Assembly (NCBI GenBank): GCA_021734805.1
Contig: JAIPIG010000001.1
Coordinates: 15,560 to 79,559, forward strand
DNA: 64,000 bases
Direction of reading: 5' to 3'
Origin: Simkaniaceae bacterium
GTDB lineage: Bacteria; Chlamydiota; Chlamydiia; Chlamydiales; JACRBE01
Under the pieces are notes generated by a model. That model worked only from the letters and a program-made list of their open reading frames with translations, had not been told where the DNA came from and ran no database searches. Below, in pieces: positions 11,763 through 18,213 of this stretch (positions within the stretch are counted from its first letter, which is position 1; each line of letters opens with the position of its first letter). Made by a program: the position numbers and the translations under genes.

Positions 11763-12371
11763 ATGGAAAACCATCAAGAATATGCCATTCATATTGTCAG
11801 TAAAAATCATGAAATAAGTGAAGCGATTAAAACTTATATTCAAAATAAATTAGCTAAGGTCGAGCGATTAACCAACAATATTATCGATGTTCACGTTCGA
11901 ATTGAAGTGCAAAAACTGGATCATATAGTCAATATTGTCATGAAATTTTCTCATTTCAACGTTCAGGCTCACGCTATGACGCACGACTTGTATTTGTCAG
12001 TGGATCGGGCTGTTGAAAAGCTTCAAAGAAAACTCTATAAGTGGAAAACAAAGATCCAGGATCATCACAATCGACAAAAGGAGATCATTTCCGTCCCTGT
12101 TGATGTCTTTGCAAAGACAGAGACCTATTTAGATGCGATTAATGATGCCATCGAAGATGAAAATATCAGTGAAGCAGAATCTTTACTGGCTCCTCCTTCT
12201 ATTGTTAAAACAAAAACGCGGTCTTTAAAAACATTAAAACTTGAAGAAGCACTGATGAAAATGGAGCTATCTGCAGATAACTTCTTAGTCTATCGCAGTG
12301 AAGAAGACCAAAAACTCAAAGTTGTCTACCGACGACGCGATCAGAGCTATGGACTCCTCCAACCGGAATAA
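11763..12371 (+). CDS. hpf: Ribosome hibernation promoting factor (long HPF, sigma-54 modulation protein family)
   Basis: IHIVSKNHEISEAIKTYIQNKLAKVERL matches the HPF N-terminal pattern. C-terminal dimerisation domain (FLVYRSEEDQKLKVVYRRRDQSYGLLQP). ATG 11763 with GAGGA upstream is preferred over TTG 11673. Confidence 0.85.
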   Translation: MENHQEYAIHIVSKNHEISEAIKTYIQNKLAKVERLTNNIIDVHVRIEVQKLDHIVNIVMKFSHFNVQAHAMTHDLYLSVDRAVEKLQRKLYKWKTKIQDHHNRQKEIISVPVDVFAKTETYLDAINDAIEDENISEAESLLAPPSIVKTKTRSLKTLKLEEALMKMELSADNFLVYRSEEDQKLKVVYRRRDQSYGLLQPE

Positions 12372-12786
12372 TCAACTGTTTGATCCCTTTCGAAAAAAAT
12401 GGGTGATTGCGACACCGGAAGAGTGTGTAAGACAGGGGCTTTTGAGGGTAATGACCGACCAAGGTGGTTATCCCAAAAGCCTTATTGCTATAGAGAGGGG
12501 AATCCAAGGCCTAAAAACAAAACGCGTCAATCGCCGTTTTGATATTATTTGCTATCATCCTAGCGGATCTCCACTGCTACTGATTGAATGTAAAGCTGAA
12601 ATCCTCAATGAGGCGACTGAAAATCAGGTGATCGGATATAACACACATGTCATAGCCCCATTCATTGCGATTGCCGGGCGGTATGAAGTGAGAATGGGAA
12701 GGTATGATGTGAAGAAACATCAATGGGTGTTTTCGGCAGGGTTGCCCCCTTTTGCAAGCTTGGTAAAATGGTTTGATCATGTCTAA
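12349..12786 (+). CDS. PD-(D/E)xK nuclease-fold protein, type I restriction enzyme HsdR N-terminal-domain-like
   Basis: RRFDIICYHPSGSPLLLIECKA gives a D...E.K nuclease motif in the context I recall for HSDR_N-type small proteins. It overlaps the hpf stop. Confidence 0.5.
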   Translation: MDSSNRNNQLFDPFRKKWVIATPEECVRQGLLRVMTDQGGYPKSLIAIERGIQGLKTKRVNRRFDIICYHPSGSPLLLIECKAEILNEATENQVIGYNTHVIAPFIAIAGRYEVRMGRYDVKKHQWVFSAGLPPFASLVKWFDHV

Positions 12787-16592: not shown

Positions 16593-17386
16593 ATAAGCAA
16601 GCTGCAGTACGAGTATGGGAAGCAAGCATTGGTGATCAAGCGATCAGGGTCCACTTAATTCCGGCTTTAGAAGATAATTATATTTATTTATTGAGTTGGG
16701 GGGATCAAGCTCTCGTTGTTGATCCGAGCGTCTCTAAACCCGTTCTCGAAAGGCTCGAAGAAGAGAAGCTAGAGCTTAAAGCGATTCTCAATACGCATCA
16801 TCATGCAGATCATGTCGGTGGTAATCAAGAAATCAAAGAGAAAACGGGGTGTAGGGTCATTGGCCCCTCTGATGTTCATATTGAATCTGTCGATCAAGTT
16901 GTTTCGGATGGGGAAGAGATTATTGTCGGTCCTTTATTGATTCAGGTGATTGCTACCCCGGGGCATACGCTGGATCACATTTGTTTTTATATTCCCGATT
17001 ATAAGATTCTTTTTTCCGGGGATACGCTGTTTACCGGAGGCTGCGGAAAGATTTTTGAAGGGACGGCACAAATCATGTTTGAATCTTTGCAAAAGCTAGC
17101 TGCATTGCCTAAAGATACGTTTATTTTTTGTGGGCATGATTATACGATGAGTAACTTAGAATTTGCCCGGGAGATAGATCCGGACAATGATGAGATTTTA
17201 AAGCGTATCCGAGAGATCACTGAGTTTGGGCAGGAATCAATTCCTTCGACAATGGAGATTGAACTTAAGACAAATCCTTTTCTTTGTACAAGTCGTCCTT
17301 CGATTCGGAAAAAAATGAACCTTTTAGATGCCACGGATGTGGAAGTTTTAGCAAAATTAAGGGAATTAAAAAGCTCGTTTAAATGA
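16589..17386 (+). CDS. gloB: Hydroxyacylglutathione hydrolase (glyoxalase II), MBL fold
   Basis: LNTHHHADHVGGN (the HxHxDH motif), ATPGHTLDH, and a C-terminal HAGH-type region (NPFLC). ATGA overlap with the upstream gene. Confidence 0.85.
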   Translation: MNKQAAVRVWEASIGDQAIRVHLIPALEDNYIYLLSWGDQALVVDPSVSKPVLERLEEEKLELKAILNTHHHADHVGGNQEIKEKTGCRVIGPSDVHIESVDQVVSDGEEIIVGPLLIQVIATPGHTLDHICFYIPDYKILFSGDTLFTGGCGKIFEGTAQIMFESLQKLAALPKDTFIFCGHDYTMSNLEFAREIDPDNDEILKRIREITEFGQESIPSTMEIELKTNPFLCTSRPSIRKKMNLLDATDVEVLAKLRELKSSFK

Positions 17387-18213
17387 GATTTATCTTCACA
17401 CACATTGTCATTATTGCATTGATATTCGTTGGCTGTCGCGGCCTTGAAAAATCGGAAAAAGAAAAAATCTGTAAAGCCAACGCCATCGATGAACCTATTT
17501 ATCGCCTGAGTGACGAAACCTGCATTACGGTTGAGCCGGGCCATTCTCGTTTGCGCGAACGCTATCCATGGGAAGAAAGGCTTGTAGGGGATTTTCCTGC
17601 TATTACAAAAGAATTTTTTCGATGCAAAGGATCGCATTCACATTCAGATATTGTTTTAGGGGATAAGGTCTTTAGGGATTGCGGCGGGATAGAGACTCAT
17701 AGTTTACCCATTCAAGACCGCGATGAATTTGTCTATCCTATTTTGCTCAACTTGCTCAACTATGTTCAGGCTCAAATGAAGCGGCAGGTTGTTGTGGTCT
17801 GTGCCCATCGCTGTCCTTTGCATCAAGCTTATGCAACACATTCAAGCGAGAAAAAAATTTCAAAACACATGATGGGTGCTGAAGTCGATTTTTATGTTAA
17901 TGGAGCAGAAGATAAGCCCTATGAAGCGGTTAAATATCTTATGCAATATTATCGTGATGATCCGGATGTGTTAGAAAAAAAACCTTTTACGCAATTTTTT
18001 GAAGCCTCTTCTTCTCAGAATGGGGTGAGTTCTTGGATGAATCGCGAGATCATCATTCGAATCCATCATTCACAAGGTGAAGAAGATTTAGATCATCCTA
18101 CAACGCATCCGTTTATTACGATTGAGTTGCGTTATGACCGAATATCGGGGAAACGCGTTGATTTTAATTGGAATCAAGCGCATCAATGTTTAAACTTATA
18201 TCAGATGAATTGA
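17383..18213 (+). CDS. Putative lipoprotein, possibly peptidase M15A/YcbK (DUF882)-like
   Basis: Signal MRFIFTHIVIIALIFVGC. VVCAHRCPLHQAYATHSSEKKISKHMMGAEVDFYV loosely resembles the SGYR.P..N...S.H..G.A.DF pattern of DUF882. Weak call. Confidence 0.3.
   Translation: MRFIFTHIVIIALIFVGCRGLEKSEKEKICKANAIDEPIYRLSDETCITVEPGHSRLRERYPWEERLVGDFPAITKEFFRCKGSHSHSDIVLGDKVFRDCGGIETHSLPIQDRDEFVYPILLNLLNYVQAQMKRQVVVVCAHRCPLHQAYATHSSEKKISKHMMGAEVDFYVNGAEDKPYEAVKYLMQYYRDDPDVLEKKPFTQFFEASSSQNGVSSWMNREIIIRIHHSQGEEDLDHPTTHPFITIELRYDRISGKRVDFNWNQAHQCLNLYQMN

Follow-up and report, generated by a model that had tools for sequence, protein, structure and literature searches.

A conserved gene block with two Maf-family paralogs points to an unstudied protein-glycosylation system in non-motile environmental chlamydiae

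Introduction

Maf enzymes are regarded as dedicated flagellin glycosyltransferases. The flagellin Maf, PseE and PseD enzymes (Magnetospirillum magneticum Maf, structure 5MU5; C. botulinum, Geobacillus kaustophilus, Campylobacter, Helicobacter, Aeromonas) are cytoplasmic, carry a PF01973 core with a GxGPS loop within a three-domain protein, and use two essential acidic residues and a Ser/Thr site. Mutagenesis in three Mafs has identified essential residues, including E324 and D415 in MmMaf and D272, D357 and S334 in CbMaf. A second described user of the Rossmann-like PF01973 domain and its GxGPS loop is the archaeal 6-hydroxymethyl-7,8-dihydropterin pyrophosphokinase MptE (8SD5/8SBU), which is a single domain of ~215-240 aa without the Maf N- and C-terminal domains or the Maf catalytic context.

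Here we describe two Maf paralogs, MafA and MafB, encoded in a conserved gene block of environmental chlamydiae. The chlamydial proteins share with the flagellin Mafs the core, the three domains, the loop, the acidic and Ser/Thr positions, the cytoplasmic location and the occurrence as paralogous copies in one genome. Unlike the flagellin Mafs, they are encoded without flagellin, flagellar or nonulosonic-acid genes nearby, their hosts are non-motile and obligate intracellular, they have an obligatory MORN_2 partner or fusion, and their genes keep a fixed operon position downstream of hpf and a gene for a PD-(D/E)xK protein.

Results

Layout of the gene block

A preliminary description of this DNA had proposed a chlamydial operon in which seven genes are closely packed from hpf onward. 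The window, meaning the whole 64 kb stretch analysed, is from a Simkaniaceae MAG, and every junction listed in that description was verified in the sequence. The features of the region are as follows.

11607..11634, plus strand: weak promoter-like site (TTGCTT-16 nt-TATAAT) upstream of hpf, read from the sequence
11763..12371, plus strand: hpf, long-form ribosome hibernation-promoting factor (PF02482, PF16321, TIGR00741), which opens the conserved block
12349..12786, plus strand: stand-alone HSDR_N_2 protein of 145 aa with a PD-(D/E)xK nuclease fold (PF13588)
12779..14332, plus strand: MafA, Maf-family paralog of 517 aa (PF01973; AF2 model compared with 5MU5)
14345..14851, plus strand: MORN_2-repeat protein of 168 aa, between the Mafs (PF07661)
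14829..16592, plus strand: MafB, Maf-family paralog of 587 aa (PF01973; AF2 model compared with 5MU5)
16589..17386, plus strand: gloB, hydroxyacylglutathione hydrolase (TIGR03413), in ATGA overlap with MafB
17383..18213, plus strand: lipoprotein of 276 aa with a lipobox and a weak LAS/M15-peptidase-like domain (weak PF05951)
18220..18245, plus strand: stem-loop then TTTTAT directly after the lipoprotein gene, a weak candidate terminator of the transcription unit

The hpf and HSDR_N_2 genes overlap by 23 nt (stop at 12371, ATG at 12349), HSDR_N_2 and MafA by 8 nt (stop at 12786, ATG at 12779), and MORN and MafB again by 23 nt (stop at 14851, ATG at 14829), with a 12-nt gap between MafA and MORN (stop at 14332, TTG start at 14345). 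If MafB is instead initiated at the next ATG, 14856, the protein would have 578 aa and the gap to MORN would be 4 nt. ATGA overlaps at 16589-16592 and 17383-17386 join the last two genes to the rest. For hpf, the sequence most likely places the start at ATG 11763, which follows a GAGGA Shine-Dalgarno motif and yields 202 aa, close to the 201-aa orthologue in locus L001; TTG 11673 is less likely. Since genes also often overlap slightly in the rest of this compact window, the packing alone is unremarkable; it is the conservation of the packing, and not the packing itself, that exceeds chance.

The promoter-like site upstream of hpf is followed by a stem-loop (11646-11666), and its -35 hexamer is too weak for the promoter scan to list. 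The stem-loop after the lipoprotein gene was terminator-like in the scan, with a fold of only -6 kcal/mol (z -0.87). Scanning for sigma-70-type promoters and terminators gave chance-level counts, with 19 promoter-like sites found in the region versus 18.9 expected. A sigma-54 activator is the convergent neighbour in 51 loci and was the source of the idea of a sigma-54-dependent operon; we rejected this idea because sigma-54 promoters (GG-N10-GC, TGGCAC-N5-TTGC) were not enriched ahead of the first gene (sites in 4 of the 71 upstream regions versus ~3.8 expected). The search for known RNA families at positions 8000-20500 returned tRNAs only. Three copies of a hairpin motif, CTCCATAAATAGrGGAG, with a modest fold, are present in the window; the motif is genome-specific and not conserved upstream of hpf in other loci, and it was rejected as part of the system.

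Conservation of the block across chlamydiae

We found that the conserved unit comprises five genes and not seven: hpf and the genes for the HSDR_N_2 protein, MafA, the MORN_2 protein and MafB. This core is collinear and overlapping in ~70 of 85 chlamydial loci. In 59 of the 85, the genes appear as separate ORFs in the order hpf, HSDR_N, MafA, MORN, MafB, and MafA precedes MafB in 71 of 82. At each of the four core junctions, the genes overlap or directly adjoin in at least 60 of ~68 other genomes; the 23-nt hpf/HSDR_N overlap itself is seen again in 27-35 of 70 loci. All five core products lack signal peptides and TM segments.

The block is found in cultured, non-motile genera, represented by Protochlamydia naegleriophila PNK_0379, Parachlamydia sp. 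AcF125 and Simkania sp. (a protein of assembly GCA_000751535 clusters at at least 90% with that of PNK_0379). The pathogenic Chlamydiaceae appear to lack it; a second homology search with a MafB profile recovered the same protein set and no Chlamydiaceae member. Some of the orthologues are auto-named 'motility associated factor glycosyltransferase family protein' in public annotation, and our literature search found no paper relevantly joining Maf/DUF115 proteins or nonulosonic acids with chlamydiae.

The hpf product scores 68 bits against TIGR00741 (cut-off 40.9), and an hpf orthologue lies directly upstream in 71 of the 85 loci. The HSDR_N_2 protein scores 60.9 bits against PF13588 (cut-off 25), and its motif PEE..VRQ / RR.D / ECK / Q..GYN is at least 90% conserved among 72 orthologues. 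It was found in 74 of the 85 loci and so belongs to the conserved block, in agreement with its earlier nomination as a candidate partner of the Mafs. Chlamydial HSDR_N_2 proteins have the PD-(D/E)xK fold and the D...ECK motif in common with the HsdR N-terminal nuclease domain (PF13588 / PF04313). Unlike the HsdR of type I restriction systems, the protein is a stand-alone 145 aa and is translationally coupled to hpf, and no helicase, HsdM or HsdS gene is nearby. PADLOC returned only domain-level matches of HSDR_N to the N-termini of type I methyltransferase models and no match for MafA, MORN, MafB, the lipoprotein or a 237-aa ORF; with neither the Mafs nor MORN matched, an anti-phage defence system was rejected.

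As hpf is the most constant neighbour and is coupled through a conserved overlap, the Maf target could be part of the machinery for translation or hibernation, namely HPF itself, one of the ribosomal proteins or a translation factor, and the operon would then be a ribosome-modifying pathway used on entering dormancy. The cytoplasmic location of all core products fits such a target, as does a radical-SAM gene of the RlmN type, resembling 23S rRNA methyltransferases, that lies just upstream in 27 loci. However, hpf/HSDR_N can be separated from Maf/MORN: they are 3 kb apart in a Protochlamydia-type locus (L005) and not within 10 kb of each other in a Parachlamydia locus (L003), and a solitary Maf-MORN fusion stands alone in another (L089). 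Moreover, gene order in chlamydiae is generally conservative, and we know of no precedent for ulosonic-acid modification of ribosomal components. We consider a target in this machinery rather unlikely.

MafA and MafB are full-length members of the Maf family

As had been proposed, MafA and MafB are DUF115/Maf paralogs; they are full-length PF01973 members with intact catalytic residues. They score 96.2 and 111.1 bits, respectively, against a cut-off of 34.6 and contain the core motifs quoted earlier, KPALICGAGPSLKD...FGGVIDP and IPAIICGGGPSLAEI...FALAVDPNS. The paralogs share 23% identity (E 4e-15), and hhalign aligns their family profiles over the whole length (probability 100%, 525 columns); MafA evolves faster and MafB is better conserved. 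In Foldseek searches with the AF2 models of MafA (pLDDT 86.8) and MafB (pLDDT 89.7, pTM 0.87), the top PDB match of each was the solved Maf 5MU5, with E 7e-18 over 589 and 572 columns, respectively, covering the full length. Both models have the three-domain Maf architecture (N-terminal, central and C-terminal helical), with a TM on query of 0.50-0.51 and a sequence identity to 5MU5 of only 14-15%. A sialyltransferase complexed with CTP is among the weaker fold matches.

The residues defined by mutagenesis are retained. In MafB, D255, D351 and S328 align with them, D255 and D351 corresponding to E324 and D415 of the Magnetospirillum Maf. Across orthologues with ~32% overall identity, the MafB GxGPS loop, D255 and D351 are invariant (71 of 71 proteins), and S328 is kept in 70 of 71. 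D230 of MafA is kept in 69 of 69 orthologues, and at its position 319 all 70 of 70 have D or E. MafA site 296 is T or N across orthologues: this genome has Asn instead of the conserved Ser, and other genomes have either Asn or the Thr found in the Magnetospirillum Maf.

Two points count against reading these proteins as glycosyltransferases: the Asn at this site in MafA, and the fact that a PF01973 core can also carry out pyrophosphokinase chemistry (8SD5). The Pfam family takes its name from MptE, whose structures 8SD5 and 8SBU rank second among the fold matches (E 1e-5 to 1e-3), and a nuclease-fold protein is adjacent in 74 of 85 loci. MafA and MafB might accordingly be kinases or pyrophosphokinases like MptE, or non-catalytic nucleotide sensors, with a small molecule or nucleic acid as substrate and the PD-(D/E)xK protein as associate. 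However, the MptE match spans ~200-260 columns of the central domain only, whereas the Maf match spans 572-589 and includes both flanking domains; at 517 and 587 aa, the proteins are also not single-domain MptE members of ~220-240 aa. The conserved residues are those needed for Maf glycosyltransfer, and the sole NCBIfam match is to the flagellin modification model PseD (NF050051), though at 21.7 and 40.3 bits it is far below the cut-off of 670. We regard a kinase or sensor function as very unlikely.

The MORN protein is systematically associated with the Mafs

The MORN protein scores 38 bits against PF07661 (cut-off 29.6) and its gene lies between or after the Maf genes in 80 of the 85 loci. 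Its proposed role as a Maf partner was borne out by fusions, which we observe in 28 of 103 homologues. In Parachlamydiaceae-type genomes the MORN part is fused C-terminally to Maf, and Parachlamydia has one MORN per Maf paralog. An APH-like kinase is found inside the Parachlamydia cluster, in that lineage only. Some of the Maf-fused orthologues are auto-annotated 'antitoxin component YwqK', after the MORN_2 / YwqK-type proteins (PF07661). Unlike YwqK-type systems, the chlamydial loci have no YwqJ-type toxin, and MORN is systematically attached to or encoded beside Maf.

Passenger and unlinked genes

The two genes that follow the core vary between lineages. The gloB product scores 302 bits against TIGR03413 (cut-off 200.8); the gene is within 10 kb in 16 of the 85 loci, lies immediately next to the block in the closest relative alone (L001/L002), and is a lineage-specific passenger. 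The lipoprotein has a signal peptide, the lipobox FVGC and a PF05951 match below cut-off (E 2.8e-4), and its orthologues match M15_2 or M15_3 weakly. It had been put forward as a further candidate partner, and is present in 53 of the 85 loci at distances of 0.1-8 kb on either strand; because distance and orientation vary, we assign it to the syntenic backbone and not to the module. The preliminary description also saw in the GT10, GT2 and UDPGP-like genes of the window a hint of a joint glycosylation system. We found GT10 in 1 of the 85 loci and the UGP3-like gene in 11, always with SWIB-ispD-truA, and GT2 is 30 kb off. These genes are unlinked to the block and give no evidence of a joint system.

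The neighbourhoods also bear on an acceptor in the envelope. Chlamydial lipooligosaccharide is Kdo-rich and MORN repeats were long thought to bind membranes, so the acceptor could be a lipid-linked or envelope glycan, for example through addition of extra Kdo or ulosonic acid to lipooligosaccharide precursors at the inner membrane face, with MORN providing membrane contact. The Maf core resembles sialyltransferase-type CMP-sugar enzymes acting on glycans (5BO7, E 0.03), and lpxB is within the window. However, lpxB is 20 kb off and not co-conserved with the block, and the 85 neighbourhoods share no recurrent LOS gene. The N- and C-terminal Maf-specific domains, which go with protein recognition in 5MU5, are retained in both paralogs, and all characterised Mafs act on proteins. 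Altogether, a glycan acceptor seems quite unlikely.

The block lacks flagellar and sugar-pathway context

In the fully Pfam-annotated 64 kb we found no flagellin or nonulosonic-acid genes, as originally noted; for the window's own MAG the search covered these 64 kb, and the absence holds within that stretch. Among the recurrent neighbour clusters of the 85 loci there are no flagellin or flagellar genes, and no flagellin, nonulosonic-acid or CMP-sugar-synthetase gene is closer than 10 kb to the block in any of 87 loci. No NulO synthase, CMP-sugar synthetase, kdsB or candidate acceptor is linked to the block in the 87 loci or the window, and de novo clustering of 2,030 neighbour ORFs revealed no linked sugar-pathway genes.

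The nearest named non-chlamydial homologue provides the comparison. It is a Maf-family enzyme (P0123) of 581 aa, similar in length to the chlamydial Mafs, encoded in a flagellin glycosylation island of Clostridium sp. OS1-26 (L088), where genes for a CMP-sugar synthetase (PF02348), PseB/LegB-like dehydratases, an ATP-grasp enzyme, a NeuB/PseI-like synthase and several GT2 proteins surround it. Using the Clostridium CMP-synthetase, dehydratase, ATP-grasp and NeuB/PseI-like proteins as tblastn probes, we found nothing relevant in the 87 chlamydial loci or the window; the island genes have no counterpart there except for one weak epimerase match in a single locus (L010).

Flagella are ancestral in chlamydiae and still encoded in some lineages (PMC5604735, PMC8242063), and 64 kb of this MAG were examined. 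MafA and MafB could thus be an ordinary flagellin-glycosylation pair, with the flagellum and the nonulosonic-acid pathway encoded elsewhere in the genome, as in some marine chlamydiae. However, the Clostridium Maf sits in a sugar island and nothing flagellar or NulO-related lies within 10 kb in the 87 loci, and the block occurs in the cultured non-motile organisms named above (cultured chlamydiae are non-motile; PMC8242063). An ordinary flagellin pair is highly improbable.

Discussion

The conserved block in non-motile environmental chlamydiae points to an unstudied protein-glycosylation system. Our preferred reading, to which we give a probability of roughly 0.55, is that MafA and MafB are cytoplasmic CMP-ulosonic-acid O-glycosyltransferases acting on a non-flagellin acceptor, with CMP-Kdo as the most plausible donor. 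MafA and MafB would be anciently duplicated, catalytically competent Maf members working in the cytoplasm. The GxGPS Rossmann loop of each probably binds a CMP-activated ulosonic acid, and the conserved Asp/Asp(/Ser-Thr) set would transfer the sugar to Ser/Thr hydroxyls of a cognate non-flagellin protein. The MORN_2 protein may serve the Mafs as an adaptor or oligomerisation module. The module would be translated from one overlapping operon with hpf and the small PD-(D/E)xK protein, and we therefore propose that its expression coincides with the induction of ribosome hibernation.

The donor and acceptor are assigned by analogy, because neither a donor-pathway gene nor a candidate acceptor is linked to the block; that both are new, as the preliminary description suggested, is plausible. 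Chlamydiae make CMP-Kdo for their lipooligosaccharide. Additionally, CMP-Kdo is accepted by Maf enzymes in vivo (bioRxiv 10.1101/2020.06.03.131540; PMC11339370). Strict specificity for the cognate flagellin is a property of the characterised Mafs (PMC11339370) and counts against a non-flagellin acceptor. On the other side stand a catalytically intact pair, purifying selection and a fixed operon, maintained in hundreds of genomes of non-motile, obligate intracellular hosts, which together argue for at least one non-flagellin Maf function. We know of no non-flagellin Maf acceptor so far.

A more far-reaching possibility, which we hold as unlikely, is that MafA-MORN-MafB is a relic of the glycosylation machinery of an ancestral chlamydial flagellum, re-targeted, cytoplasmic, and co-expressed with ribosome hibernation at the replicative-to-infectious transition. 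The module would then have survived loss of the flagellum because it was re-targeted. If this is true, Chlamydiota would hold the first Maf system directed at something other than flagellin, and the phylum would gain its first defined pathway of protein glycosylation.

For glycoengineering, the block would supply Mafs that differ in acceptor specificity and come with their own MORN adaptor domain, and E. coli supplies CMP-Kdo, making the chlamydial Mafs directly testable there. For chlamydial biology, it provides a concrete candidate for a protein (or envelope) glycosylation system, which may be tied to the developmental switch into dormancy.

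Organization of the operon

Eight co-directional ORFs lie on the + strand between tRNA-Arg/recO (minus strand, end at 11509) and a HAD hydrolase gene (minus strand, start at 18961). A preliminary description had proposed that seven of these genes form a translationally coupled operon, with two Maf-like paralogs, MafA and MafB, around a MORN-repeat protein. Base-by-base inspection of the sequence bore out all of the junctions that it gave.

Gene junctions in the operon (+ strand)
hpf / HSDR_N: stop 12371, ATG 12349; 23-nt overlap
HSDR_N / MafA: stop 12786, ATG 12779; 8-nt overlap
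MafA / MORN: stop 14332, TTG 14345; 12-nt gap
MORN / MafB: stop 14851, ATG 14829; 23-nt overlap (4-nt gap if MafB starts at ATG 14856)
MafB / gloB: stop 16592, ATG 16589; ATGA overlap
gloB / lipoprotein: stop 17386, ATG 17383; ATGA overlap

Products of the operon and their profile matches
hpf: long-form hibernation factor; PF02482 and PF16321, TIGR00741 above cut-off
HSDR_N, 145 aa: stand-alone HSDR_N_2 PD-(D/E)xK domain; 60.9 bits (cut-off 25)
MafA: PF01973; 96.2 bits (cut-off 34.6)
MORN, 168 aa: MORN_2; 38 bits (cut-off 29.6)
MafB: PF01973; 111.1 bits (cut-off 34.6)
gloB: TIGR03413; 302 bits (cut-off 200.8)
Lipoprotein, 276 aa: signal peptide and lipobox FVGC; sub-threshold similarity only to M15-type peptidases

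The mechanical start of the hpf ORF is TTG 11673. Most likely, judging from the sequence, translation begins instead at ATG 11763, which has a GAGGA Shine-Dalgarno upstream and yields a protein of 202 aa versus 201 aa in the orthologue. Directly 3′ of the lipoprotein gene, a stem-loop (18220-18245) followed by TTTTAT hints that the transcript might end there. This stem-loop contains one copy of a 17-nt hairpin motif, CTCCATAAA(T/C)AG(A/G)GGAG, that occurs three times on the + strand of the window versus 0.21 expected by chance:

8699-8715, +, 3′ of the GT10 gene
11650-11666, +, within the hpf leader
18223-18239, +, directly 3′ of the lipoprotein gene

The motif is not conserved in related loci; it could act as a terminator or a regulatory hairpin peculiar to this genome. 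Downstream of the operon on the same strand is a 237-aa ORF (18244-18957) with hydrophobic segments at its N and C termini; because it has no Pfam match and no counterpart in any of 85 related loci, we class it as an orphan gene.

A conserved five-gene core in environmental Chlamydiota

The window comes from a Simkaniaceae MAG, and its MafA is 100% identical to MCF7806843.1, encoded on a 104.8-kb contig. Scanning one genome per GTDB species by pattern plus tblastn returned 365 relatives, with the block in about 300 GTDB species. Environmental Chlamydiota (Simkaniaceae, Rhabdochlamydiaceae, Parachlamydiales, Neptunochlamydia) make up essentially all of the best 80 of the 365; a few are labelled otherwise yet have the same chlamydial synteny. 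The chlamydial hpf-HSDR_N-MafA-MORN-MafB block is present, in several cases with recO, in records labelled Verrucomicrobiae, Verrucomicrobia, Acidobacteria, Aerophobetes or 'Chlamydia trachomatis' MAG (L011, L015, L016, L019, L022, L037, L055, L079, L086), and these labels are probably wrong. Named protein matches came from Parachlamydia, Protochlamydia naegleriophila, Simkania and unnamed chlamydial MAGs, with no Chlamydiaceae among them, which is suggestive of the block being missing from that family.

Loci, out of 85, with a tblastn match to each window protein
MafA / MafB: 85
MORN: 80
HSDR_N: 74
hpf: 71
M15-like lipoprotein: 53
recO: 49
HAD: 25
gloB: 16
UGP3-like: 11
GT10: 1

Separate frames in the order hpf, HSDR_N, Maf, MORN, Maf were found in 59 loci, most of the others being cut by contig ends. 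At each of the four internal junctions, neighbouring genes overlap or abut in at least 60 of about 68 loci, and an hpf/HSDR_N overlap of exactly 23 nt is seen again in 27-35 of 70. HSDR_N orthologues keep the D...ECK nuclease motif at ≥90%. Presence counts, conserved order and junctions, and variable flanks therefore reduce the proposed seven-gene operon to a five-gene conserved core, with gloB and the lipoprotein gene as lineage-specific passengers. By profile scoring, 71 of 82 loci have an A-family Maf first and a B-family Maf second; both the duplication and this order thus predate the split of these chlamydial families.

Downstream of MafB there is usually a convergent gene for a sigma-54-dependent response regulator (AtoC/CtcC type; 51 loci within L006-L085, e.g. 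L030 11731-13071, minus strand), often with its sensor kinase. The window lacks this pair at that position and has gloB and the lipoprotein gene instead, which suggests that the region was rearranged locally in this Simkaniaceae lineage. An RlmN-like radical-SAM gene is often found upstream of hpf. We considered and rejected both a sigma-54-driven operon and a known defence system as descriptions of the block.

The window also encodes a UGP3-like UDP-sugar pyrophosphorylase (21969-23996) with a C-terminal hexapeptide-repeat domain. It moves with SWIB-ispD-truA in at least 11 loci as part of the backbone synteny, and its suggested link to the Maf genes did not survive comparison. Elsewhere, 27010-28187 (minus strand) holds an AbiEii-type nucleotidyltransferase toxin gene (PF08843) and, upstream of it, a gene for a 211-aa partner without a Pfam match, probably a type IV toxin-antitoxin pair, here in an obligate intracellular bacterium; L001, the closest relative, has one at a different place (17405-18043). 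Two DUF4116-repeat proteins of 259 aa (10057-10836) and 798 aa (58302-60698), neither recurrent in the related loci examined, may be lineage-specific and effector-like.

MafA and MafB are Mafs by sequence and predicted fold

Both long proteins match the Maf/DUF115 profile above its cut-off, as had been anticipated. They are 23% identical to each other (E 4e-15), and their family profiles align end to end over 525 columns (hhalign probability 100%). Among solved structures, sequence profiles point to just one relative, 5MU5, the Maf of Magnetospirillum magneticum (profile E 1.4e-8), with the archaeal pyrophosphokinase MptE next. AlphaFold2 gave confident models of MafB (pLDDT 89.7, pTM 0.87) and MafA (pLDDT 86.8, pTM 0.85), and 5MU5 was the top Foldseek match for both (E 7e-18); the alignments span 572 and 589 columns and therefore match all three Maf domains. 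MptE aligned with the central domain only (E 1e-5 to 1e-3), and we rejected it as the identity of either protein. That a PF01973 core performs chemistry other than glycosyl transfer here appears very improbable.

Activity of the Magnetospirillum Maf needs E324 and D415, as found by mutagenesis, and Clostridium and Geobacillus Mafs need an equivalent Asp/Asp(Asn) pair plus a conserved Ser (bioRxiv 10.1101/2020.06.03.131540). HMM alignments place these positions at D255, D351 and S328 in MafB and at D230, D319 and N296 in MafA. Among orthologues whose identity to the window proteins averages only 26-32%, GxGPS, D255 and D351 of MafB are kept in 71/71 and S328 in 70/71; in MafA, D230 is kept in 69/69, residue 319 is D in 65 and E in 5, and site 296 is T in 36 and N in 27. 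The catalytic positions are nearly invariant despite low overall identity. By sequence, modelled fold and catalytic residues, MafA and MafB are genuine Mafs.

MORN as a partner of the Maf enzymes

C-terminal MORN_2 repeats are carried on the Maf itself in 28 of 103 homologues. Parachlamydia sp. AcF125 (L003) and a Protochlamydia-type genome (L005) each have three B-type Mafs, two of them fused to MORN; in the former, a separate MORN protein of 183 aa is encoded after the third. Maf then MORN is the order of domains in the fusions and of genes in the window, a classic pattern indicating physical interaction. We predict on this basis that MORN is a partner of the Maf enzyme. One fusion, in L089, stands solitary.

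A larger Fic protein adjoins that solitary fusion, and the window has a short stand-alone Fic/DOC-domain protein (134 aa, 2958-3362). Between the Maf paralogs of L003, with overlapping stop and start codons, is an APH-family phosphotransferase gene (8967-10004; PF01636, 27.7 bits) that could be a sugar or protein kinase of that lineage's version of the system.

The hpf/HSDR_N pair is separable from the Maf/MORN module, being 3 kb away in L005 and not within 10 kb in L003. The neighbourhood of hpf might suggest the ribosome or hibernation machinery as the Maf target, a reading that we consider unlikely.

Absence of flagellar and sugar-pathway genes

Pfam annotation of the whole window showed housekeeping genes, lpxB, a GT10, a GT2 and the UGP3-like gene, with no flagellar, nonulosonic-acid or CMP-sugar-synthetase gene; the preliminary description had already noted the lack of flagellin and nonulosonic-acid genes. 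Likewise, no gene of these kinds recurred in the loci when 2,030 neighbour ORFs were clustered de novo. As a positive control, the closest named homologue from outside the chlamydiae, that of Clostridium sp. OS1-26 (L088), lies inside a typical island with a CMP-sugar synthetase, dehydratases, an ATP-grasp enzyme, GT2s and a NeuB/PseI-like synthase, whereas tblastn with these island proteins gave no relevant match in 87 chlamydial loci and the window. The synthase gene (17389-18807) is uncalled in L088 and seemingly split between two reading frames, which may reflect a frameshift or sequencing error.

In the window and the loci compared, the chlamydial genes lack both contexts typical of the Maf family, flagellin and a nonulosonic-acid pathway, and their products score far under the cut-off of the PseD flagellin-modification model. 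Chlamydiae in culture are non-motile; flagella are ancestral and kept only in some marine lineages (PMC8242063, PMC5604735). Ordinary flagellin glycosylation with partner genes elsewhere in the genome is, in our estimate, highly improbable.

A possible glycosylation system

Some orthologues are already auto-named 'motility associated factor glycosyltransferase family protein' by NCBI and UniRef; assigning the domain is therefore not in itself new. We came across no paper on Maf/DUF115, on MORN or on the operon in chlamydiae. Three features appear to be undescribed: the hpf-HSDR_N-MafA-MORN-MafB block as a conserved unit, the fusions to MORN, and a consistent lack of partner genes for flagellin and sugar pathways.

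No signal peptide or membrane segment was found in any of the five core products. Going beyond family membership, we put at roughly 0.55 the probability that MafA and MafB are cytoplasmic glycosyltransferases that would use a CMP-activated ulosonic acid to modify a cognate acceptor other than flagellin. In chlamydiae, CMP-Kdo is made for lipooligosaccharide. It would be the most economical candidate donor; two characterised Mafs move Kdo from CMP-Kdo onto Ser/Thr in E. coli (bioRxiv 10.1101/2020.06.03.131540; PMC11339370). A glycolipid acceptor seems distinctly unlikely. Under the favoured glycosyltransferase reading, MORN would serve to recruit the acceptor or to assemble the enzymes, and co-translation with hpf suggests that the block would be expressed as the cell enters dormancy.
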